A stretch of 64,000 nucleotides of DNA from a virus. Its lineage: Duplodnaviria; Caudoviricetes. The position numbers were made by a program, and so were the translations under genes. Within the stretch, counting starts at the first letter, position 1. Every line of letters begins with the position of its first letter. Below the pieces are notes generated by a model. It searched no databases. It saw only the letters and a program-made list of their open reading frames with translations, and had not been told where the DNA came from. The stretch is from the IMG/VR virus record IMGVR_UViG_3300028833_000061, positions 32,001 to 96,000 of that record; one strand, given 5' to 3'. Shown here one piece after another: positions 45,250 through 55,749 of the stretch.

Positions 45250-48015
45250 CTAGTGTTTCATTTTCTCTCCCCAACGCGTGTATATATCCGTGTCGGAGTC
45301 AAGTCTGAATGTTCTTCCCGTCTTATATATCGGGATGTCTATCTCTGACATAGCCCAGTGCATCGCTTCCTTGGTAACGTCGATTTCATCGATCGGCACC
45401 TCGAGCATCAATGCATCGTGGATCTGGTTCTGGAGCTTGAATCTAAGCCCAAGCTCCTTTCTTCTGTTAAGCAGTCTCTCGGTTGCTATCTGTATCGTGC
45501 CTGACACAAGCGACTGGATGCTGTAGTTCGCACTTTCGCGTTCGTATGCCGCATTCCGTTCGCCAGGCCTGACAGGCGTCCACTTTCGCATTCCCCAGGC
45601 GTTCTCAATATAGCCTTTCTCGTACACGCTCTGCTTCCACTCCTCAAGAGTGTTCCACGCGACAGGGAACGAGCGTGTCTTCCATGCGTCAAGGACGTTC
45701 TGCATCTCTGCGGTGATTACATCCAACGGCCTCTCGTCTCTTGTCGACGACTTTATTTTTATAGCCAGTGCAGCCGCGCCGATTCCATACATGATCGAAA
45801 AGTTAGTCGTCTTTGCGGCAAGCCTCGGGCCGTTCTTCATCTGTGCGTGGGTCATGCACAGCCCGTGCTCGTTCTTGTATGTAAGGCTCTTCTGGAAGTT
45901 TTCGAACTCTTCGCAGGTATCTGAGCCAAGCTCCGAGGCATATTTGCAGATGTCGTCCATCGTCCATTCCTTGCCGTCTGGATCAAACATATGCAGGTGG
46001 AACGAGTCTACGGCAACCATTGTGTGCATGTCTGTTCCAAGGGTGTGCAAGGCCTTCAACAGATTAGGATCACCGGATAGGTTTCCTAGGACATGCAGTT
46101 CGGCAGTCGAATAATCCGTTTCCATCATGACCCATCCGTCTGGCGGCTTTACAAACGACCGCATCGACGGTGGCGGTGGATCTGGCGCGAAGATCTCGGC
46201 CATTGCGGCGTCGGCCTTCTTGCTAAAGTTCTGGACGTTTGGATCAGACGACGACAGCCTCCCCGTGGCAAGAAGCATTGAATATCTCGTATGGATCCTG
46301 CCATCCGGCCATACATAGCTCTTCAGTCCGCCTTTTCCGTGTTCGTCCGGCATCTGGAACAGATCGCACGGCTTCGACACCCTGCGATATCTCAGAAGCA
46401 GCCCTACTATCGGATGGGCGAATTCAAGCATCGTCAGGGAATCCTTGTCGGTGGACGCCTGCACAGATCCGCTGTCGTCATCCATGGCCATGTTCGCCAT
46501 GGCGTCTGCCCACGACTTCTTGTTCGTAGCCTTTATAGGTGTAAGTCCGCACTTGTCGAACAGCAACGTCCTGATGTGTGCAGAGCTGTTTACGTTGATG
46601 TCAGGCATTCCGAGGTTGGCGCAGGCTGTAGTCAGCTTTCCGAGGGCGTCTGCGCGGATATTCTGATACGCATCGACAAGTTCCTTGAATCTTTCCTCGT
46701 CGAACGGGAGGCCAGTGATCTCCATCTCCATCACCGACAAGGCCGTGGCCATAGTCGTGTGGAACAGCGACGGATACTCGCCTTTCACTCCTCTTGGGTC
46801 TAGCGCGCCTCTCTCCTGCAGCAACGGCAGCTGCTTCTCCATGATTCGATCAAGGACACAGACGTCATACGCACCATACGGCAGCAGTATTTCGTCAGGC
46901 ATGTTTCCATAGCCGTTGCTGTCTACGTCCGCCTTGTGCTCTTTGGCCCACTTGTCCGATGCTATGCAATACCTACCGAAATCGGTATATTTCATGGACA
47001 GGTCGTCGAGACCGAACGGGCCGATGTTCTTCAAGATGAATTCGGCCAGCATCGTATCGTAGAAGATCCGCGGACGTATGTCGATTCCGTACGACAAAAG
47101 CCATTCCGCGTCCGCTATGATGTTGTGGCCTACGATGTCGACGCGCTCGTCTTCCAGCAGCAGCTTCAGCTCGTCGAGCATCTTGTTGTAGCACGAGACG
47201 TGCCTGCCTCCCTCGTGGGTCAGCTGCACGACAACGGCCTTGTCCCTGGCATACGAAAACTGGATCGTCCTGAAATAGCGGTTCGGATCCTGCCAGTTCT
47301 TTCCGCCCCACTCCGAGTCAAGGAACAGAGGAACGTTCTTCTGGTTTTCGAACAGAATTTCGCGGAACGCCTTTATCTCGTCTGCCGACGTGAAGTACAT
47401 TACATCGACTTCCGGCACCTTCCTTGGCGTCCCGTCGAGATAGTTTATCGCCTCCTTCAGGTCGCGATGGAACGCATCGTCATATTCTGGATGCTTCTCG
47501 ACCTGGTCGAGGCTGAACACACCTAGAAGCTTTCTTGTCTTTCCAGCTATTTCCTTGTCTATTAGCTCGCCTCTGGATATGTCGAAATAGCCCTTGGCTC
47601 CGTACATGTTCTCGAAAGGATACGCCCCCAGGCAGATTATGATCTCAGGATCTACTTCCGCTATCTCCTCTTCAAGGAACAGCGAGCACTCCTTCGTCAT
47701 GTCGGCCTTTGGCTTCTCGCCTTTCTTCAGCGAGTACTTGAGCACATTCGTATAATACGTGCATCCTTTCGGGAAGCCTATCAGCCCAAGGTGTTCATAC
47801 AGAAAGTCAGCCTGCGAGTTGTACACGTCGCCGTTAGGAGCCTTCTGCAGGAACACCTTGCCGTGAACGACCTCGTTGTGGGTCGGAGCGGACCCGACGA
47901 TCATGCACCTGGCATGCGCCGGGCCGCGCCCGTTTACCCACATCCTGCTTCCTATCTGGAGCCTGTCTCCTTGGAAGCGGTGTGGTCTGTCGTCAATCTT
48001 TGGAATCTTCGCCAT
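45250..48015 (-). CDS. polA: DNA polymerase family A with 3'-5' exonuclease and N-terminal uracil-DNA-glycosylase-like domain
   Basis: exo LDSEW, HNIIAD, YGAYD; TGRLSSSDPNVQN; motif A DYSTAELHVL; motif B RLAAKTTNFSIMYG; motif C IHDAL; N-terminal MIVGSAP...TNVLK...EEEIAEVDPEIIICLG. Confidence 0.93.
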   Translation of the reverse strand: MAKIPKIDDRPHRFQGDRLQIGSRMWVNGRGPAHARCMIVGSAPTHNEVVHGKVFLQKAPNGDVYNSQADFLYEHLGLIGFPKGCTYYTNVLKYSLKKGEKPKADMTKECSLFLEEEIAEVDPEIIICLGAYPFENMYGAKGYFDISRGELIDKEIAGKTRKLLGVFSLDQVEKHPEYDDAFHRDLKEAINYLDGTPRKVPEVDVMYFTSADEIKAFREILFENQKNVPLFLDSEWGGKNWQDPNRYFRTIQFSYARDKAVVVQLTHEGGRHVSCYNKMLDELKLLLEDERVDIVGHNIIADAEWLLSYGIDIRPRIFYDTMLAEFILKNIGPFGLDDLSMKYTDFGRYCIASDKWAKEHKADVDSNGYGNMPDEILLPYGAYDVCVLDRIMEKQLPLLQERGALDPRGVKGEYPSLFHTTMATALSVMEMEITGLPFDEERFKELVDAYQNIRADALGKLTTACANLGMPDINVNSSAHIRTLLFDKCGLTPIKATNKKSWADAMANMAMDDDSGSVQASTDKDSLTMLEFAHPIVGLLLRYRRVSKPCDLFQMPDEHGKGGLKSYVWPDGRIHTRYSMLLATGRLSSSDPNVQNFSKKADAAMAEIFAPDPPPPSMRSFVKPPDGWVMMETDYSTAELHVLGNLSGDPNLLKALHTLGTDMHTMVAVDSFHLHMFDPDGKEWTMDDICKYASELGSDTCEEFENFQKSLTYKNEHGLCMTHAQMKNGPRLAAKTTNFSIMYGIGAAALAIKIKSSTRDERPLDVITAEMQNVLDAWKTRSFPVAWNTLEEWKQSVYEKGYIENAWGMRKWTPVRPGERNAAYERESANYSIQSLVSGTIQIATERLLNRRKELGLRFKLQNQIHDALMLEVPIDEIDVTKEAMHWAMSEIDIPIYKTGRTFRLDSDTDIYTRWGEKMKH

Positions 48016-48736
48016 CTGGAAGCTCCGCTTTCACATGGCACGGATTCGTCTCATAATCGTCTGCCCACGGATACGAATCCCAGCCGTACCAGATATCGAT
48101 GTTCGGGCTGAACAGGATGTCGATGTCAGACAGCTTCTCTGCATTCTTGCAAATGCATAGACGAGGCTCGTCCTTCTTCGACTCGTCATAGTCCCATGAG
48201 CCTGGCTGACGAAGGCGATAGTCGATCACGTGATCCCCAACAGTGTCAGGGCCATCCTCTACGACCTGGTGGTCGATCTCGAACACCATATGCGCCTTCT
48301 TCGTATACGGCGTGTCCTTGGTTACCTCGGGCTTGTCCTCAGGATCCATATCCTCGTCCTCGCCATCCCACTCATAGCACTCGGAATAGTCGAATCCGTC
48401 GACATGGACTCCTTCGTCCTCGAGCAGGCTGCAGACTTGCTCCTCCCACATCTTCATGTCCGGGTCGTTCTCGACGTCGCCTGGACGAAGATCCGGCTCC
48501 CAGCAACCGAACTTGTTTGCGATCCTGAGTACGGTAAGATACTGCAGCTTGTCGTAGAACGTGTCTGGACCGTAGTTCCAGTCAGCCCTGTCAAAGTTGA
48601 ATCTGATCTTGCCACGCCTGATGCAGCCGCTAAGTTTGAAATACTCCTTGCGGCTGATCTTGCGCGGCGAAACAGACACTGCGTGCGTCGAGGACGAATT
48701 TGTCTCGAACACGCCTTCTCTTTTCACTTTTGGCAT
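47993..48736 (-). CDS. FETNSSS-motif protein 1
   Basis: MPKVKREGVFETNSSSTHAVSV. Confidence 0.8.
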   Translation of the reverse strand: MPKVKREGVFETNSSSTHAVSVSPRKISRKEYFKLSGCIRRGKIRFNFDRADWNYGPDTFYDKLQYLTVLRIANKFGCWEPDLRPGDVENDPDMKMWEEQVCSLLEDEGVHVDGFDYSECYEWDGEDEDMDPEDKPEVTKDTPYTKKAHMVFEIDHQVVEDGPDTVGDHVIDYRLRQPGSWDYDESKKDEPRLCICKNAEKLSDIDILFSPNIDIWYGWDSYPWADDYETNPCHVKAELPDGEDSKD

Positions 48737-48746
48737 TGTTTTTCTC

Positions 48747-49334
48747 CTATTGCGGTAAAACCGAAATCACGACATTAGGATTGTCGAGAAGATCGTACGC
48801 CGACAGCCGTTCCGTCATGTCGTCGAACGGAACACCGATATCGAAGTCCACTGACAGATACAGCTTCTTGTTCTTGCGGTTGAACGCGCTGGCTGCGTCT
48901 ATGTGAGCCCACTTGTACAGAGGGCCGGACGGCTCTTTGAATATCTTTGTCCAGCCCTTCTCGCTTTTCAAGTCGCGATCGAGCTTGCCGGCTCTCGACA
49001 GAACGCTGTTTGCGCTGTTCTCGATCATGCGGAATTCGCGCGTACGTTTAAACTCGTCTATATAATCCGTGACGTCATCATCGTACTTCTCCTGCTTGTA
49101 CATGAACCTGTCCATCGCGGCTTGGATGAGATACGCGACCTTTTCTCCGAATCCGGTGATCTTCGTCTCCTTGTTCAATATGACGACAGGCTTGACCTTG
49201 AGAACGTTGTTCTTGATCTTGATGTCTCTGAAGTAGTCGTCTGGCCACTGCTTCCTCGGATGATAGCCCTTGATGGAAAGGCTGTGCATCGACGACGAAT
49301 TCGTTTCAAAGACGTTGTGGCGTTCTACTTTCAT
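48747..49334 (-). CDS. FETNSSS-motif protein 2
   Basis: MKVERHNVFETNSSSMHSLSI. Confidence 0.8.
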   Translation of the reverse strand: MKVERHNVFETNSSSMHSLSIKGYHPRKQWPDDYFRDIKIKNNVLKVKPVVILNKETKITGFGEKVAYLIQAAMDRFMYKQEKYDDDVTDYIDEFKRTREFRMIENSANSVLSRAGKLDRDLKSEKGWTKIFKEPSGPLYKWAHIDAASAFNRKNKKLYLSVDFDIGVPFDDMTERLSAYDLLDNPNVVISVLPQ

Positions 49335-49663
49335 TATTCGTATCCGTATGCGCAGAGTATGTGAATCTTATCGCCGTGTTCAGAAGTATACTCGTGCTCA
49401 TCCTGCTCAAGGTCCTCATACCACGCATCCATATTGAACCAGCCTTCGCTGCACAGCGGCCATACGGCCCCGTGCTCGATGTCGTCCTTAAAGTAGTCTG
49501 GAAGCAGCTTTATCGCCTCTTCCTTCGTCTTGATTCCGTGGTCCTTGTGGTACCATAGATTCCTGTCTTCCTTCAGTTTCTTGAAGTCCGCATCCGAAAG
49601 AATCGCTATCGCATGCGTAGACGAGGAGTTTGTTTCAAACACGCCATGCCTAGTTGTTTTCAT
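49334..49663 (-). CDS. FETNSSS-motif protein 3
   Basis: MKTTRHGVFETNSSSTHAIAI. Confidence 0.8.
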   Translation of the reverse strand: MKTTRHGVFETNSSSTHAIAILSDADFKKLKEDRNLWYHKDHGIKTKEEAIKLLPDYFKDDIEHGAVWPLCSEGWFNMDAWYEDLEQDEHEYTSEHGDKIHILCAYGYE

Positions 49664-50285
49664 GTTCTTCTCCGTAGAGTTTGTTGTAGTACGGGAGCTG
49701 CTTCACCCAGTCACAGAAGGTGTGCCACTCAGACAGCTTGTGAGTCTTTCTCGCCTCGTACATGTGATGCAGCACCTGATAGTTGCCCATCCATGTCGCC
49801 TTCTGGTTGTACGAAGATGGCAGCATCTGGACGATGTCTCGCCACATCGACTCCTTAAGGTCTGGAAGGTCCTCCTTCAGACACAGGTCTCGCATGAGGT
49901 TCAGCTCGTCGATCATGTCCCTGAAATAACGATAGCCGTATGACGTGCCGTCCCTGCTGAAGTCGTCGATAGTAAATGGCTTCTTCAACAGCGTGTGCAT
50001 GGTCGAGCAGCTGTTCCTTACTGTGCCTATTTTGTAGGTATCTGCCTCTTTCCACCAATACATCGGTGCTGTGATATCGGCATACACAACGATCATGCGA
50101 GTCAGCTTGCCGTGGTCGTCTCCGGCCTGTGCAAGCTTCATTGCAAGCTCAAGGTCCTTCTTGCCTGGAGTGAAAACTCCGTCTTCGTTTTTCGAATCTG
50201 ACAAGTGCCACGAATTCAACGGGTTGCGCATTGCGCGCAAGGCCTCCTTGAGTCCGTAAACACTCGTGTTTTCAATTTTGATCAT
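49650..50285 (-). CDS. ThyX-like (flavin-dependent thymidylate synthase fold) phage protein
   Basis: AMRNPLNSW...ITAPMYWWKEADTYK...SCSTMH...LPSSYNQ...RKTHKLSEW; canonical RHR motif absent. Confidence 0.6.
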   Translation of the reverse strand: MIKIENTSVYGLKEALRAMRNPLNSWHLSDSKNEDGVFTPGKKDLELAMKLAQAGDDHGKLTRMIVVYADITAPMYWWKEADTYKIGTVRNSCSTMHTLLKKPFTIDDFSRDGTSYGYRYFRDMIDELNLMRDLCLKEDLPDLKESMWRDIVQMLPSSYNQKATWMGNYQVLHHMYEARKTHKLSEWHTFCDWVKQLPYYNKLYGEEHENN

Positions 50286-50952
50286 CGCCTGTCAGTACCT
50301 TCGCTACGTTTTCTTCGAATATCTTTCCCCAGTGATCCTCGAACTTGTTGGATTCCGGCAGGAACTTTCCATCATACTCGGACTGTCCGTCAAGCTCGAT
50401 GATGTACGAACGGGGATCTTCCAGGAATCTCTCGATGTTCTCCCGCTCGCGCAGATTGAACTTGTCGAGGAAGTCTGTCCGAATCCAGCAGTTGGTGTGG
50501 ATGAGCTGTATCTGCTCTGGTGGATCCTTGCTGATGCTGTCCTTGGGCTCGTTGTACAGCATCCTGATGTGGCTCGGGATTATACCAGAAACCTCGTAGC
50601 CGTGGCGCGCCATGACGTTCCTGACCGCCAGCTCGATCACAGGAAACATGGAAAACGGATAGTCTCCGAACACCTGCTCGGGCATGTACCAGTTGTCGTA
50701 CCACTTGCCGTACTTGTCCCAGAAGCTGTCCGCTGCCGTGGCAAGCAGCACGCGAACCTTGTCGTAGAACGAATATATCTCGTTCGGCATGTCGAAATCA
50801 TCGATCTCGAAGTTATTATACTTTCTGACATGCGTATACGCCTCCTTGAAGTACATGTCGTTCAGCACGAAGTGCTTGTCACCGTTGTACAGGGCCAGCA
50901 CGTGCGTCGACGACGAATTCGTCTCAAATACGCCTCGTCTAGTTGTTTTCAT
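50272..50952 (-). CDS. FETNSSS-motif protein 4
   Basis: MKTTRRGVFETNSSSTHVLAL. Confidence 0.8.
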   Translation of the reverse strand: MKTTRRGVFETNSSSTHVLALYNGDKHFVLNDMYFKEAYTHVRKYNNFEIDDFDMPNEIYSFYDKVRVLLATAADSFWDKYGKWYDNWYMPEQVFGDYPFSMFPVIELAVRNVMARHGYEVSGIIPSHIRMLYNEPKDSISKDPPEQIQLIHTNCWIRTDFLDKFNLRERENIERFLEDPRSYIIELDGQSEYDGKFLPESNKFEDHWGKIFEENVAKVLTGDDQN

Positions 50953-51499
50953 GCTTTCTTATTATCGTTATGTCGCTGCACAGCGTGCAGTACTCGATGT
51001 CTCCGAAAGATTTGCAGTTCTTGTTCCAGAACCACTCGAACTCAACCTCGTCGCCAGGCTCGATGTCTTGATTTATATACTTTCGCGTTATGAACATCTG
51101 CCCGGTCCAGGCGCGTATCCACTGGCGCTTCGTTCCATATCTGGTACGAATGTTGCACGACGTTATCGTACCGCGAAACTTTCTTCTATCTATAACCGGA
51201 GTATCCGGGGCCTTTGGAGGCTCGTACTCCTTAAGGCCTTCTGGACCTCCTACGACTACGCACCCGAGAATGATTCTTTCGTGGTTTCCGCTTACCGTGT
51301 ACGCGCTTACGGTCTGCCCTTTCTTTATGTCCCTGTTTATACTGAGACATGTCGATATTAGATCGGACAGACCCTTAAGCTTGATCGACTGCTTCGCCTT
51401 CCCGGCCACAGTACCGTACACCTCGCTCCACTCCACTACGCCCGTTGTTACAACGACGTCCTTGGAGTGGAACGAGCCTACGACGTCGCCAGCCTTCAT
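50939..51499 (-). CDS. hypothetical beta-rich protein (possible tandem OB folds)
   Basis: DIKKGQTVSA and DIEPGDEVEFE repeats. Confidence 0.55.
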   Translation of the reverse strand: MKAGDVVGSFHSKDVVVTTGVVEWSEVYGTVAGKAKQSIKLKGLSDLISTCLSINRDIKKGQTVSAYTVSGNHERIILGCVVVGGPEGLKEYEPPKAPDTPVIDRRKFRGTITSCNIRTRYGTKRQWIRAWTGQMFITRKYINQDIEPGDEVEFEWFWNKNCKSFGDIEYCTLCSDITIIRKHENN

Positions 51500-52389
51500 C
51501 GCAGCGACCTGTACATTGCCGTGACGGAGACCGGTTTGGTCGGATCATAGAACGTGAGAACGTCCGTAAGCGAATTGCGTGCATAGGCATGCGCCACGGC
51601 ATCGACGTACATCGACGCAGAAGTCATGGTACCGTCCACTCCATCGTCGCCCATATACATTGACAGCCATGCCTGCGGCTCCATCATGTCCTTGACGCCG
51701 AGCTGGTTGAGGGCCAGATTGTCGAAAGACAGGACCTTGCATGGCAACTTACCTGTGACGATGTGCCTGACGACTTCCTTGAGCGTGGACATGTCCGGGA
51801 TCTCGTCCTTCTTTGCACGGCCCATGTTCTTGTAGCCAAGCAGCAGGATCTTCGCTCCGCTCGTCGCATACTCCACGACAGCCTTCGGAGGAACGATTCC
51901 TGCGATCAGGTGAAGAACCGTGTTGTCCGTCATCTTTTCGACGATCTCCGCATCGAAGTGATCGATCGACACTCCGATTCCGAACAGCTTCTTGTCGTTG
52001 ACGTACTTCATCAGGCGATCGTGGTACTTCAGGAAGTGCGTCCAGTGGACCGTTATGTTGGCCAGCAGTTCGTTGTCCGAGCACAGGTCCAGGATGCGAT
52101 CGAGGTCTGGATGCTCGATCGGAGATCCTCCGCCAAGCGCGACCTCGGTCCACGGCATCATCGTATCCACGACTGCACGCACGTCCTCATAGCTTGCGTG
52201 CTTTCCTGCAGGAGTGCAATTGCGATAGCAGAACGGACAGCCGACGCCGCACGCGTCGGTGATGTTCAGATCGATCGACTCAGGGAAGTCGGCAATGAAA
52301 ACAGGCTCTTCCCCGGAATCGCGGATCTTCGTTCCGTCAGTATCGTCTATGGAAACCTTGTAGTTTCCGTTCTGATACTCGTGCGTCAT
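51496..52389 (-). CDS. radical SAM protein
   Basis: CGVGCPFC (CxxxCxxC), EVALGGGSP. Confidence 0.92.
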   Translation of the reverse strand: MTHEYQNGNYKVSIDDTDGTKIRDSGEEPVFIADFPESIDLNITDACGVGCPFCYRNCTPAGKHASYEDVRAVVDTMMPWTEVALGGGSPIEHPDLDRILDLCSDNELLANITVHWTHFLKYHDRLMKYVNDKKLFGIGVSIDHFDAEIVEKMTDNTVLHLIAGIVPPKAVVEYATSGAKILLLGYKNMGRAKKDEIPDMSTLKEVVRHIVTGKLPCKVLSFDNLALNQLGVKDMMEPQAWLSMYMGDDGVDGTMTSASMYVDAVAHAYARNSLTDVLTFYDPTKPVSVTAMYRSLR

Positions 52390-52787
52390 AGCTTTTCAAG
52401 CTCCTTGACGCGATGAACCAGCATGGCGGTCTTGCGCTCGGCGGCGATGACGGTCTGCTCGTCGAACGGAAGCTTTCCGCTTCCGCTGCCGTACCATTTG
52501 ACCACCTCCCAGTTGGCACCGACGATATAGGTTCCGTTGTCGCCATTGTCGGTGTCGAGGTGCTTCAGGTCACCGACTCCGATTCCGCTGTCCTTGGCAA
52601 GTCCGAGGTCGAACGCAATAAGTCCGCACAGTCTTGCCACCGCGTATTCTGGATCGTCTTCCGGGTCGCGATAGCCAAGCGCCTTTGCGGCCCCAATATA
52701 GCCAAGCACCGTGGCTGGATCTCCGTTCCAGTGGACGTAGATACCGGTATCGCAGTCATTCAATCCGATTACTGCTCTGTCTCCCAT
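52386..52787 (-). CDS. conserved phage hypothetical protein
   Basis: MGDRAVI...IYVHWNG...DNGTY. Confidence 0.7.
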   Translation of the reverse strand: MGDRAVIGLNDCDTGIYVHWNGDPATVLGYIGAAKALGYRDPEDDPEYAVARLCGLIAFDLGLAKDSGIGVGDLKHLDTDNGDNGTYIVGANWEVVKWYGSGSGKLPFDEQTVIAAERKTAMLVHRVKELEKL

Positions 52788-53416
52788 TATTCGTAGCTCC
52801 AGTCCTTCTCAGCATGGATCATGAATTCGATCTGCGTGTTGAAGATTAGGGTTATCATTTCATCGACGGACGCGTTCATAATCTCGAAATACTCGGTCCT
52901 GGCCTCCGGTCCGACGTACACCAGATTGCTCTGGCGTATAATCTTGCGGATTTCAGGCTCGTCGTGTCCGTCATGCCACTTTGGATTCCAAATCTGGTTT
53001 CCGTTGGAGTCGGCCTTGCCCATGGCGCAAGCCGGAAACTGCGCGCGCCCGAGGACTACTCTCCTGAGCGGCACGTCCTTTCCATCCTTGTGCGCGATAG
53101 CAAGCGACTCGTTGATCTTGTCGAACAGCGTCTTGAAGTCGACGAACTGCATAAGCTCGGCAGGAGTAGCATGGAACAGATGCTCATAGTTGCTGTATCC
53201 GAACAGGCTTGTCTTGCAGTCGTTCGCATACAGCGCCAACGCCGTCTTGATCTTGTCAGGCAGCGATATCGCCCATCCGTCATCCATGTCCAGCGACAGG
53301 TCTCCGATCCAGAAGTCTTTGGCCTTGGACCTGCGAAGCTGCTCGTAGATGCAGGCGGGATTGCTCTTCTTGCTGCGCTTTCTGAAAATCTCGAGAATGT
53401 ATCTCTCCTCGTCCAT
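52787..53416 (-). CDS. hypothetical protein
   Basis: start MDEERY coupled to the upstream stop. Confidence 0.65.
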   Translation of the reverse strand: MDEERYILEIFRKRSKKSNPACIYEQLRRSKAKDFWIGDLSLDMDDGWAISLPDKIKTALALYANDCKTSLFGYSNYEHLFHATPAELMQFVDFKTLFDKINESLAIAHKDGKDVPLRRVVLGRAQFPACAMGKADSNGNQIWNPKWHDGHDEPEIRKIIRQSNLVYVGPEARTEYFEIMNASVDEMITLIFNTQIEFMIHAEKDWSYE

Positions 53417-54123
53417 CAGCCGTTCCTCCAGTATGAGATTCCAAGTGTCTTGCGGATGACGATGTCTATAGGACGCCAGCCGCCGAAGCACGACGTGAGG
53501 CTCTTGTGCTCGTCCCAGGCATCCCTTGCCCAGTCACACACTTCGTGATCAAGGTCGGACACGACAAGCTTGCCTTTGTCGATCCGCTCGTACAGAATAA
53601 CCCTCTTTGCACTAGGATCCTCTATGATTTTTCCGTCGTCGTTCTTTACAGTGATGCACTTGAGCATGATATTGTCGTTGTCATAACTAGATCCAAGAAG
53701 ATCCTCCACCTCCCATAGGTCGGAACGTTCTCCGAACACGATATCCTTGAGGTTGAAGCCGAGCTTCTTGAACTCCTTCGTGAGGTCATTCACGAAATCC
53801 TTGTACGCCTTGTGCTTCTTCATCTTCTCGACGTCGATCAGATAGTCTCCTGTATAACGGTTCGTGAGCCCCTGGCCTATGATGCCGAATATGTACCGGA
53901 GCTTTGCGTCGAGCGAATACTTCGTCGTACGCATCTTTCCGCCTAGCTTTCTGATTCGCAGATACCAGTCGTCCCCCTGCTTGTCCATTACAACGGAATC
54001 CCAGTCATCAAGGTCCAGGACATCCGCCCTGTCGATCTTCTTGTATGTCTCCGCGAGATTCCAGGCGATCGCGTGGGTCGAGCTGGAATTCGTCTCGAAG
54101 ACGCCTCTTCTAACCGTTCTCAT
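53416..54123 (-). CDS. FETNSSS-motif protein 5
   Basis: MRTVRRGVFETNSSSTHAIAW. Confidence 0.8.
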   Translation of the reverse strand: MRTVRRGVFETNSSSTHAIAWNLAETYKKIDRADVLDLDDWDSVVMDKQGDDWYLRIRKLGGKMRTTKYSLDAKLRYIFGIIGQGLTNRYTGDYLIDVEKMKKHKAYKDFVNDLTKEFKKLGFNLKDIVFGERSDLWEVEDLLGSSYDNDNIMLKCITVKNDDGKIIEDPSAKRVILYERIDKGKLVVSDLDHEVCDWARDAWDEHKSLTSCFGGWRPIDIVIRKTLGISYWRNG

Positions 54124-54514: not shown

Positions 54515-54755
54515 AGCAGTCGTCGCAAAGACCTGTCTGGATCATCTCGCGCTCGGTTGGCGTGAACTGATCCACTGGCAGGATTTCCTGGATCAACTTG
54601 TGGTTCTTACCGCTGCAGTAGTCTCTGATAGCATTAGCCTGGTCTGTCGAACAGACAAGCATCTGCTTCTTTCCACACATTGGGCACGCTCTGTGCACCT
54701 CGGCCGTCGCCATGTTTGGGTGCATTATCATTCTGTCAAAACTAGCCATTTCCAT
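54489..54755 (-). CDS. small zinc-ribbon protein
   Basis: CPMCG...EREMIQTGLCDDC. Confidence 0.65.
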   Translation of the reverse strand: MEMASFDRMIMHPNMATAEVHRACPMCGKKQMLVCSTDQANAIRDYCSGKNHKLIQEILPVDQFTPTEREMIQTGLCDDCYDRACSSF

Positions 54756-55749
54756 CCTTCAGCTCTACCAGGCAATTGAACGAGCTCAACGTGAGACCGC
54801 TGTTTGCCAGGTACTTGTTTGAATTTACTGTGTCCTCTATCTGCCTCCATATTTCAGGCCTTGGACATTCTCCGGCGTCCTTGTATCCCTTCAGGGACAC
54901 TGGAACTACCAGCGTAGTAGTGGGAAATCTTGCGGCTAGCTTTGTCTGTTCGTCAGCCGCGTCAGGGTCCAACAGGAGAATGACAAGACGCCACCTGGAC
55001 AGCATCGATATCTGGCCGTCGCTGACGTTCTTTCCGAAAGTAGCCACTCCGCACAGCCCAACGGCCATGGCATCGAAGGCACCCTCGGTAACGACAACGA
55101 CGTCAGAATGCACCGCCCAGTCCTTGTTGAACAGCAGTTTTCCCTTTTCAACACCCGGAGACGTGAAATACTTCGGAGGTCTCCTGTACTTGCCACTTGG
55201 CTTCTTCTCGAATCCGAAGGCCGCGCATTCATCATCGCTCAGCTTGTCGGGATTGTACAGCAGCCTGGATTGCCATCCTACCACCTTTCCTTCGTCGTAC
55301 AATGGAAGTACTATGGTGTTGGACGTGTTGAACAATCCTCCTGCATACGGCTTTCCTTCCCGGCAATAGCATACTCCGAACATGCGCTCCAGCTCTCCCG
55401 GATCGAACCCGCGTTGCTTCAGGTACAGGATCGCCTGGTGACCTGAAGGCAGCGCGTGCAGCGGTATCAGTTCGCCAGGATCCGTCTGGACTATCGGTTT
55501 CTTCTCTTCCTTCTCAACAGGCCTGAATACCATATTCCTGGCCTCACGAATAAGGTTGCCTATGCGGCCTCCCTCACCACAGTGCCAGCAATGCCAGATA
55601 CCCATGTTGGCATTTACCGACATCTTGTACTCGTGCCCGCATTTCGGGCACGTCGTCAACAGTTCCAGACCGTTTCTACCGCTGCTTTTCCTGACAGGTC
55701 CGAACTTGTCCTCAAGAAGCTGCTGGAGCCTCTGGCTTGACTGGGACAT
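54742..55749 (-). CDS. DNA primase (Zn-binding + TOPRIM)
   Basis: CPKC...WHCWHC; PKYFTSP; VVVTEGAFDA; LLDPDA; KDAGE. Confidence 0.9.
   Translation of the reverse strand: MSQSSQRLQQLLEDKFGPVRKSSGRNGLELLTTCPKCGHEYKMSVNANMGIWHCWHCGEGGRIGNLIREARNMVFRPVEKEEKKPIVQTDPGELIPLHALPSGHQAILYLKQRGFDPGELERMFGVCYCREGKPYAGGLFNTSNTIVLPLYDEGKVVGWQSRLLYNPDKLSDDECAAFGFEKKPSGKYRRPPKYFTSPGVEKGKLLFNKDWAVHSDVVVVTEGAFDAMAVGLCGVATFGKNVSDGQISMLSRWRLVILLLDPDAADEQTKLAARFPTTTLVVPVSLKGYKDAGECPRPEIWRQIEDTVNSNKYLANSGLTLSSFNCLVELKDGNG

Follow-up and report, generated by a model that had tools for sequence, protein, structure and literature searches.

Introduction

Radical S-adenosylmethionine (rSAM) enzymes act on short invariant peptide motifs in several described systems, among them PqqA/PqqE and MftA/MftC. 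In activase/glycyl-radical enzyme and maturase/sulfatase pairs the target peptide is invariant too, because it has to be accommodated by the rSAM site and to remain functional once acted upon. Here we analyse a phage locus (Caudoviricetes; IMG/VR record IMGVR_UViG_3300028833_000061, 201,401 bp, rated complete by CheckV) in which one rSAM gene lies among five genes whose products, termed M1 to M5, share an N-terminal peptide (the tag). The stretch analysed, referred to as the window, comprises bases 32001-96000 of that record (64,000 nucleotides).

Glycyl-radical enzyme/activase pairs (PflB/PflA, NrdD/NrdG and the spare-part GrcA) resemble the locus in combining a small rSAM enzyme, whose only cluster is the three-cysteine one, with a strictly conserved short peptide of an adjoining partner. 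Some fused relatives of the rSAM enzyme described here match the activase/QueE-type domain Fer4_12, one source labelling them 'organic radical activating enzyme', and both systems occur in large phages, with genes prone to intron or intein invasion. However, the glycyl-radical motif, R-V-x-G-[FYW], is C-terminal with an invariant Gly, whereas the tag is N-terminal and serine-rich, with Gly in 55% of members. Glycyl-radical enzymes are also 10-stranded barrels, while the partners here are proteins of 60-300 aa without a known fold, and the rSAM enzyme of the window itself lacks a Fer4_12 match.

Anaerobic sulfatase maturases (anSME/AtsB) offer a second likeness, as their clients carry a short invariant serine motif near the N-terminus and one maturase can serve several paralogues. 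In contrast to the enzyme studied here, they possess a SPASM domain and cysteines for two auxiliary 4Fe-4S clusters. Their client motif is C/S-x-P/A-x-R, whereas no Ser of the tag is followed by Pro/Ala-x-Arg; no anSME model was found among the NCBIfam matches, and the partners are not sulfatases. The maturases of ribosomally synthesised and post-translationally modified peptides (RiPPs; PqqE/PqqA, MftC/MftA, SuiB) are alike in that one rSAM gene stands beside several precursor-like genes with a conserved segment, and the best PDB sequence matches of the rSAM enzyme include SuiB, SkfB and PqqE, over the cluster-binding core only. Their precursors are short, however, while here the invariant N-terminal segment precedes a folded domain of 100-250 aa, RRE, SPASM and twitch domains and a conserved protease or transporter are lacking, and fusions of 'precursor' and enzyme are common. 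Since SPASM cysteines, a C/S-x-P-x-R motif, a conserved Gly and an RRE are all missing, membership of the anSME, glycyl-radical and RiPP-maturase classes fails, and the formylglycine mechanism of anaerobic sulfatase maturases, considered in a preliminary description of the locus made from the sequence alone, was not borne out.

The internal proteins of phage T4 carry an N-terminal sequence of about ten residues which is cut after hydrophobic-x-Glu. They are likewise hypervariable, multi-copy phage proteins with a short conserved N-terminal peptide ending in this motif; in contrast, the proteins studied here are tightly coupled to an rSAM gene, dispense with the Glu in a fused class and are encoded outside head modules.

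A near-invariant N-terminal tag on divergent proteins

M1 to M5 (Table 1) all start with methionine and one or two basic residues, followed by R-x-x-V-F-E-T-N-S-S-S-[T/M]-H and a hydrophobic stretch, the invariant columns of their alignment being M1, R6, V9, F10, E11, T12, N13, S14, S15, S16 and H18. The five open reading frames (ORFs), as reported in the preliminary description, were recovered at the same coordinates on the minus strand. Against 0.15 matches expected, a degenerate DNA pattern for F-E-T-N-S-S-S was found five times in the window, and none of 100 shuffles reached five. Synonymous codons differ among the copies (TTC/TTT, GAG/GAA, ACA/ACG, TCG/TCC/AGC), which indicates selection on the peptide and conservation at the protein level; a DNA- or RNA-level repeat as the cause of the tag was ruled out by the same variation. 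The entire 201-kb genome contains these five tagged ORFs only, and a single rSAM gene.

The strong divergence of the remaining sequence, also remarked on earlier, was confirmed: M1-M5 share 28-31% overall identity, contributed mostly by the tag, and BLASTP linked none of the tails of the four long paralogues (M1, M2, M4, M5) at E 1e-3. Searches of M1-M5 against Pfam, NCBIfam and PHROGs gave nothing except phrog_28997 (function unassigned), matched weakly by M3 and M5 (E about 3e-3) over tag residues 3-24 only, the M5 match covering residues 3-21; M1 had no Pfam or PHROG match at all. M5 had no tblastn match in 50,697 phage records, M4 had four close homologues only among 5.8 billion proteins, and the M2 tail had a single weak relative among 204 viral family members.

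Those members came from sampling the tagged family on IMG/VR with a back-translated motif pattern, which yielded at least 116 stretches and 204 complete ORFs of 60-300 aa. Among the matches listed, the tag Glu lies 9-10 residues after the start codon in 196 of the 204 ORFs, an Arg five residues upstream is invariant although absent from the search pattern, and tandem tagged copies number from one to six per locus. Tag position -3 is Gly in 112/203 members (55%), Asn in 52 and Ser in 20, M2 having Asn; a glycyl-radical motif in the tag was dropped as a candidate for want of a conserved glycine. When 1.84 billion representative proteins (50% identity clusters) were searched with a profile, 9,117 matched at E up to 1e-3, of which 4,266 had an E of 1e-10 or below, and in the best 150 of the 9,117 the profile start almost always coincided with protein residue 1. 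One protein (P0100) has an internal second copy of the long domain described below, without a tag. The tag is thus modular, strictly N-terminal and near-invariant.

Across 185,579 prokaryotic species genomes the pattern occurred in 74 stretches only, mostly contigs of metagenome-assembled genomes with a phage-like size. Isolates bearing the tag with an adjoining rSAM gene were Acetivibrio ethanolgignens, Eubacterium plexicaudatum and Breznakiella, the rSAM frame being broken in the last, and an ESM Atlas search gave viral hypothetical or rSAM clusters only. The tagged family is essentially viral.

Coupling of the tag to the rSAM gene

The preliminary description had regarded the tag as a module tied functionally to this rSAM subfamily, and had proposed to measure their neighbourhood co-occurrence. 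This was done in both directions. In the forward direction, viral contigs of 100 kb or more which carry the tag were searched for the rSAM gene, and 46 of 49 had an orthologue (E 1e-23 to 1e-63). It was present in all 22 contigs with a completeness of 90% or higher, and the three contigs that lack it are 66-76% complete. For the reverse direction the best 80 of at least 538 viral rSAM-encoding stretches were chosen by rSAM similarity alone, and 75 of them hold one to six tagged ORFs within 10 kb, 192 of the 200 tags reading exactly E-T-N-S-S-S. In at least one of the five remaining loci the tagged gene lies on another part of the contig (L194 and L088). Tags without the rSAM gene are therefore not common, and, as the rSAM orthologues share 26-44% identity, the pairing has survived deep divergence.

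The two genes are also physically adjacent. The rSAM gene was found in 88 of 126 tag-bearing loci, and in the 85 loci where both genes lie in the fetched slice the nearest tagged gene is always on the same strand, at a median gap of 8 bp (75th percentile 28 bp). De novo clustering of the neighbours in the 80 rSAM-anchored loci placed the rSAM gene in 80, the tagged family in 75 and the next family in 20. In contrast, the other genes of the window (polymerase, primase, DnaB, the phrog_6721 gene and the ORFs p186, p133 and p234) have no homologues in the 126 tag-bearing loci.

The coupling extends to gene fusion. A region-restricted search found long-domain-rSAM fusions of 450-530 aa in at least 100 clusters (90% identity), reaching down to about 30% identity, and their genomic contexts are phage-like too. 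The tag of the fusions always occupies the extreme N-terminus and has the variant form R-x-G-F-A-T-N-S-S-S-x-H. The replacement of Glu by Ala shows that the Glu is dispensable and leaves T-N-S-S-S-x-H as the invariant core. Two-way co-occurrence, adjacency, the lack of any other conserved neighbour and these fusions together uphold the proposed functional tie.

The rSAM gene is present in Prevotella Lak megaphages and in Microcystis phages of the Ma-LMM01/MaMV group, and Salmonella phage Arash gave a match over part of its length. In Ma-LMM01 the canonical long tagged protein is gp130, encoded two genes upstream of the rSAM protein gp128 (annotated 'Fe-S oxidoreductase'), while Arash gp146c (annotated 'methyltransferase') unites a long tagged domain and an rSAM domain in one polypeptide of 476 aa; each genome encodes exactly one tagged protein. 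'One maturase, five clients', as had been suggested from the window, is accordingly not the general design, the minimal arrangement being one long tagged protein with the rSAM enzyme (Ma-LMM01), often fused (Arash). The gene between gp130 and gp128 in Ma-LMM01, gp129 (L212:5622-5960), encodes a phage ProQ C-terminal-like domain (PF24203, E 7e-15).

The rSAM enzyme lacks auxiliary cluster ligands

A CxxxCxxC rSAM gene among the tagged ORFs, between primase and polymerase, had been recognised before and was confirmed by Pfam (PF04055, 39.2 bits against a cut-off of 29.5, E 1e-9, residues 42-154), by phrog_16999 (E 4.7e-34) and by the family hidden Markov model (HMM; E 3.4e-94). C47, C51 and C54 are invariant in 69 orthologues and 97 fused relatives. 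The alignment of the 69 orthologues (alignment A4) contains no conserved Cys beyond these three cluster ligands, and the three other Cys of the window enzyme are all non-conserved. SPASM-family NCBIfam models matched the N-terminal core only, far below their cut-offs, and Pfam and NCBIfam scans of the window proteins gave no RRE/PqqD-like, SPASM or twitch domain. Without auxiliary-cluster cysteines, the protein is not a sulfatase-maturase-type enzyme. Its similarity to MoaA, viperin, SuiB, SkfB, PqqE and Tes is generic and confined to the cluster-binding core.

Some fused relatives match Fer4_12 (PF13353), the Arash protein reaching 24.9 bits against a cut-off of 22, while the window enzyme had no match at E up to 1. 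Residues common to the fused and unfused rSAM domains are G19, D40, the three Cys, E82, a G-G-G run at 86-88, H93, N111, S141, K187, R191, D223, Y261, D263 and S273. The G-G-G run is a candidate for the glycine-rich SAM-binding ('GGE') motif. The classes can be told apart at residues 55-56, which immediately follow the third Cys: H-E in unfused enzymes (H in 87%, E in 96%), Y-Q in fused ones and Y-R in the window enzyme. The tag follows the same division, with Glu accompanying the H-E of unfused and Ala the Y-Q of fused enzymes.

The rSAM gene is repeatedly interrupted in other phages. In G013 and G047 it is split into two ORFs directly after the cluster motif, in G020 it lies within a 714-aa frame, and P0176 (823 aa) has a probable intein inside CxxxCxxC, with an Intein_splicing match (E 1e-4) below the Pfam cut-off. 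Intron and intein invasions are typical of highly conserved phage genes.

Unrelated tails behind one tag

After the tag had been masked, the tagged proteins were grouped into tail classes. In the long class the core spans about 165-200 aa and bears the motifs G-E-F-G-W, a K-x-S-Y-L helix, G-Y-I-D-H, in which the D is at least 90% conserved in the canonical class, and G-N-D-N. The short class measures about 120 aa (alignment A3), and about 15% of the proteins, a minority, have other tails. The long tails are not related to the short ones (hhalign probability 0.2%); both classes are acidic, with a median isoelectric point (pI) of about 4.6. Both occur in 60 of the 75 rSAM-anchored loci, most commonly in the order long-short-rSAM. 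ORFs found with tail-only profiles bear the tag in 283/293 cases for the long and 178/181 for the short class, the exceptions being mostly fragments at locus ends. The long-class proteins end exactly in K-G-N in 25 of 103 cases (alignment A2) and short-class proteins often in Y-D-G or G-H-D, so that both termini of the tagged proteins seem constrained.

M3 is a clear member of the short class (full HMM E 2.8e-30; tail-only HMM E 2.2e-16). The long paralogues are far less easily placed. A weak helix and DH/HID strings, picked out in the preliminary description, are indeed present and align with the long-class helix and with G-Y-I-D-H, but tail-only profiles did not make this relationship significant: no window ORF reached E 0.01 with the long-class tail-only HMM, and against the canonical long class hhalign gave probabilities of 52% for the M4 family and 8% (M1), 3% and 0.4% for the other three. 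In the window tails the D-H and N-D-N motifs of the long class are lost to differing extents, whereas the tag is still invariant.

Among 111 long-class relatives, 66 matched phrog_28997 (best E 4.6e-30). In five of the 111, of about 261 aa, a C-terminal extension delimited by eye is Tad2-like (PF11195, best E 5.8e-8; Table 1); Tad2 is an anti-Thoeris sponge. Pfam searches of 111 long, 56 short and 35 other tagged proteins gave this domain in the five and otherwise stray matches only, and M1-M5 do not have it. No known relatives of any tail were found in Pfam, NCBIfam or PDB, PDB sequence-profile searches with the tails giving nothing credible.

AlphaFold2 (AF2) models built on family alignments reached a confidence (pLDDT) of 75 for M4, with 85-97 in the core and about 53 in the tag region, and of 85 for M3, with residues 1-10 below 50. 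In both models the first 10-17 residues are unplaced and a beta-strand begins directly after the tag. In fold searches (Foldseek against PDB and BFVD; VIA-align wide) no match rose above noise, the best Z score being 3.3 for M4 and 4.3 for M3. A Toprim-like E...DxD motif, metallophosphatase motifs, a flavodoxin-type phosphate loop and a DEDD exonuclease motif were dropped without a supporting match, as was a three-residue cyclophane motif, since some fusions have L, H, R or P at its aromatic position. Full-text literature searches on the motif, on phage rSAM enzymes with anti-defence and on Ma-LMM01 gave no description of the module, which is apparently undescribed.

Possible roles of the tag

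An identical tag on unrelated folds which is disordered in AF2 models is most likely a free arm bound by a common partner, the rSAM enzyme, and its being left unplaced is as expected of a peptide that needs a partner. The interpretation that we favour, with confidence falling a little short of even, is that the rSAM enzyme acts on the tag of its partners and covalently modifies the T-N-S-S-S-x-H core. This reading draws on the analogy with the activase/glycyl-radical and maturase/sulfatase pairs, whose target peptides are invariant too. We infer that the flexible tag of each partner would enter the rSAM active site, where the 5'-deoxyadenosyl radical would take a hydrogen from the T-N-S-S-S-x-H stretch. 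The covalent change left behind might be oxidation or dehydration of a serine, crosslinking to the histidine, or the formation of a protein-based radical or cofactor, and the partner proteins would need this change in order to act.

Several points weigh against modification of the tag. A client fused to its own maturase would be unusual, fusion being more typical of the subunits of one enzyme. Invariance across phages of Bacteroidota, cyanobacteria and enterobacteria exceeds that of usual recognition sequences, and such strictness would also fit a catalytic or ligand-binding arm. As only the three cluster Cys are conserved, the best-understood routes to serine oxidation and to most peptide crosslinks are excluded. 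Lastly, the tails are dedicated, not being seen without the tag in the loci examined, which argues against any protein serving as a client.

The tagged proteins might instead be interchangeable subunits of a two-part rSAM enzyme, whose arm would plug into the rSAM barrel and supply Thr, Asn, Ser and His for catalysis or ligand binding, the variable domain picking the true substrate (a nucleotide, a nucleic acid or a host protein). The abundance of the fusions and the single-partner systems of Ma-LMM01 and Arash make this a serious rival, if on balance an unlikely one. The near-absolute invariance of the polar tag residues and the restriction of long and short tails to tagged proteins also agree with it, as does the joint change of tag Glu/Ala and rSAM position 56, although the latter is a single class-level event and so weak evidence. 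On the other hand, two unrelated tails and others besides would have to compete for one site, the window paralogues have lost the other long-class motifs while retaining the arm, and no other substrate-related gene is conserved nearby in the 80 loci.

It is improbable that the tagged proteins are sacrificial precursors, in which the tag would be a core peptide and the tail a 'follower', the rSAM-processed core being released as a small product or cofactor and the paralogues raising the yield. An invariant core with freely diverging, multi-copy followers would fit, and there are established parallels in PqqA/PqqE, MftA/MftC and the bottromycin precursors, which have an N-terminal core and a C-terminal follower. 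However, no protease or tailoring gene is conserved in the cassette across the 80 loci, the RRE/PqqD-like and SPASM domains were not detected in Pfam or NCBIfam, and a precursor fused to its enzyme would permit a single turnover. Followers of 100-250 aa would also far exceed the size that followers are known to have.

Self-processing, the alternative put forward in the preliminary description, is less probable still. Autoprocessing in inteins and pyruvoyl enzymes classically takes place at Asn-Ser and Ser-Ser junctions, and the tag contains both, with a histidine after the serines and a beta-strand right after the tag; cleavage at N-S or S-S would expose a Ser/Thr nucleophile or a pyruvoyl group, and the rSAM enzyme would be loosely related. 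This leaves the near-obligate, adjacent and often fused rSAM gene unexplained. There is no fold similarity to Ntn hydrolases, and the matches to pyruvoyl enzymes were confined to AdoMetDC entries at Z 3.2-3.3, within noise.

Hardly more can be said for an ordinary enzyme whose N-terminal active-site strand and loop form the motif and whose rSAM neighbour reflects the shared descent of the phages. The canonical long class does have further conserved polar motifs (G-Y-I-D-H, G-N-D-N). This reading is nevertheless largely refuted by the same tag on unrelated tails and by the conservation of the pair while the surrounding genes are not conserved, and the linkage was kept down to rSAM identities of 26-44%.

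The least probable reading is a capsid-targeting or protease signal cut after V-F-E with the rSAM gene incidental, since, for all that the tag matches the T4 targeting sequence in length and layout (M-K...hydrophobic-x-E) and the proteins are fast-evolving, acidic and multi-copy, the fused class swaps Glu for Ala while retaining T-N-S-S-S-x-H, the genes have replication-type surroundings rather than head genes about them, the signal would not account for the rSAM coupling, and the main text of the Arash genome paper, which lists 116 particle-associated proteins, does not mention the fused gp146 (PMC10585845).

Returning to an arm that the rSAM enzyme modifies or engages, it is possible, if somewhat doubtful, that the module represents a new kind of rSAM system, in which an invariant, strictly N-terminal serine-rich arm, borne by dedicated partner domains and in some cases fused to the enzyme, becomes or serves as a protein-derived radical site or cofactor not seen before, without auxiliary clusters. 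With only a three-cysteine cluster available, its chemistry should differ from that of known serine-oxidising and crosslinking rSAM enzymes, and an invariant polar core of eight residues across phages of different bacterial phyla implies that it is precise. If this is true, a core function of thousands of large phages would depend on this arm chemistry. The tagged family has about 9,100 representative clusters, the rSAM gene occurs in at least 538 viral stretches, and its carriers include Lak megaphages of human and animal guts, bloom-controlling Microcystis phages and a cultured Salmonella phage. Solving the module would provide rSAM enzymology with a new reaction or protein-derived cofactor and would assign a function to a large block of phage 'dark matter', and the cultured phages Ma-LMM01 and Arash, together with the 109-aa M3, make it directly testable. 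As to the partners, the early or replication-type setting, acidity, fast divergence, variation in copy number and occasional Tad2-like fusion give a hint that they may be host-takeover or counter-defence proteins.

Gene layout of the window and neighbouring genes

The genes of the region all lie on the minus strand, and from the primase to the family-A DNA polymerase almost all stops overlap or abut the next start, so that this block looks like one translationally coupled unit. The polymerase ORF, which has a long N-terminal extension ahead of its exonuclease and polymerase part, overlaps the end of M1 by 23 bases.

Table 1. Coordinates of the features described. Positions are those of the window, except for the Tad2-like carriers, which are given by locus.
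Feature	Position	Strand	Remarks
Family-A DNA polymerase	45250-48015	minus	921 aa
M1, tagged protein	47993-48736	minus	247 aa, pI 4.5 (acidic); tag residues 1-18
M1 tag	48683-48736	minus	N-terminal tag HMM E 1.7e-10
M2, tagged protein	48747-49334	minus	195 aa, pI 9.0 (basic)
M2 tag	49284-49334	minus	tag HMM E 5.7e-12
M3, tagged protein	49334-49663	minus	109 aa; 'short' tagged class
M3 tag	49613-49663	minus	tag HMM E 1.4e-13
phrog_6721 ORF	49650-50285	minus	211 aa
M4, tagged protein	50272-50952	minus	226 aa; long, divergent
M4 tag	50902-50952	minus	ORF translation
p186	50939-51499	minus	186 aa
rSAM enzyme	51496-52389	minus	297 aa; virus-dominated subfamily
rSAM residues 55-56 (Y-R)	52222-52227	minus	
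rSAM CxxxCxxC motif (C-G-V-G-C-P-F-C)	52228-52251	minus	C47, C51, C54; translation
p133	52386-52787	minus	133 aa
p234	52787-53491	minus	234 aa
M5, tagged protein	53416-54123	minus	235 aa
M5 tag	54073-54123	minus	tag HMM E 2.5e-13
Primase	54742-55749	minus	
Tad2-like carrier	L016:5276-6061		
Tad2-like carrier	L024:191-976		
Tad2-like carrier	L103:3596-4381		
Tad2-like carrier	L110:5531-6319		
Tad2-like carrier	L121:3250-4038		

The cassette of the window is atypical in being interleaved with unrelated genes. The ORF between M3 and M4 matches phrog_6721 (function unassigned, E 8e-68) and had no match in Pfam or NCBIfam; having no homologue in the 126 related loci, it is an insertion into the cassette and not part of the module. 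p186, p133 and p234, interleaved with the rSAM and tagged genes, likewise gave no family match and no homologue in those loci. Each overlaps the adjoining genes at its start and stop, so that the three are probably co-translated with the module.

Beyond the module itself, the next commonest neighbour is a P-loop protein of about 295 aa, labelled so by eye, in 20 of the 80 rSAM-anchored loci (L132-L211), where a Thg1-like ORF, also labelled by eye, recurs. An RNA ligase gene lies near the module in Arash, and a gene annotated 'histidyl tRNA synthetase' in Ma-LMM01. Together these neighbours might hint at an RNA-repair setting.

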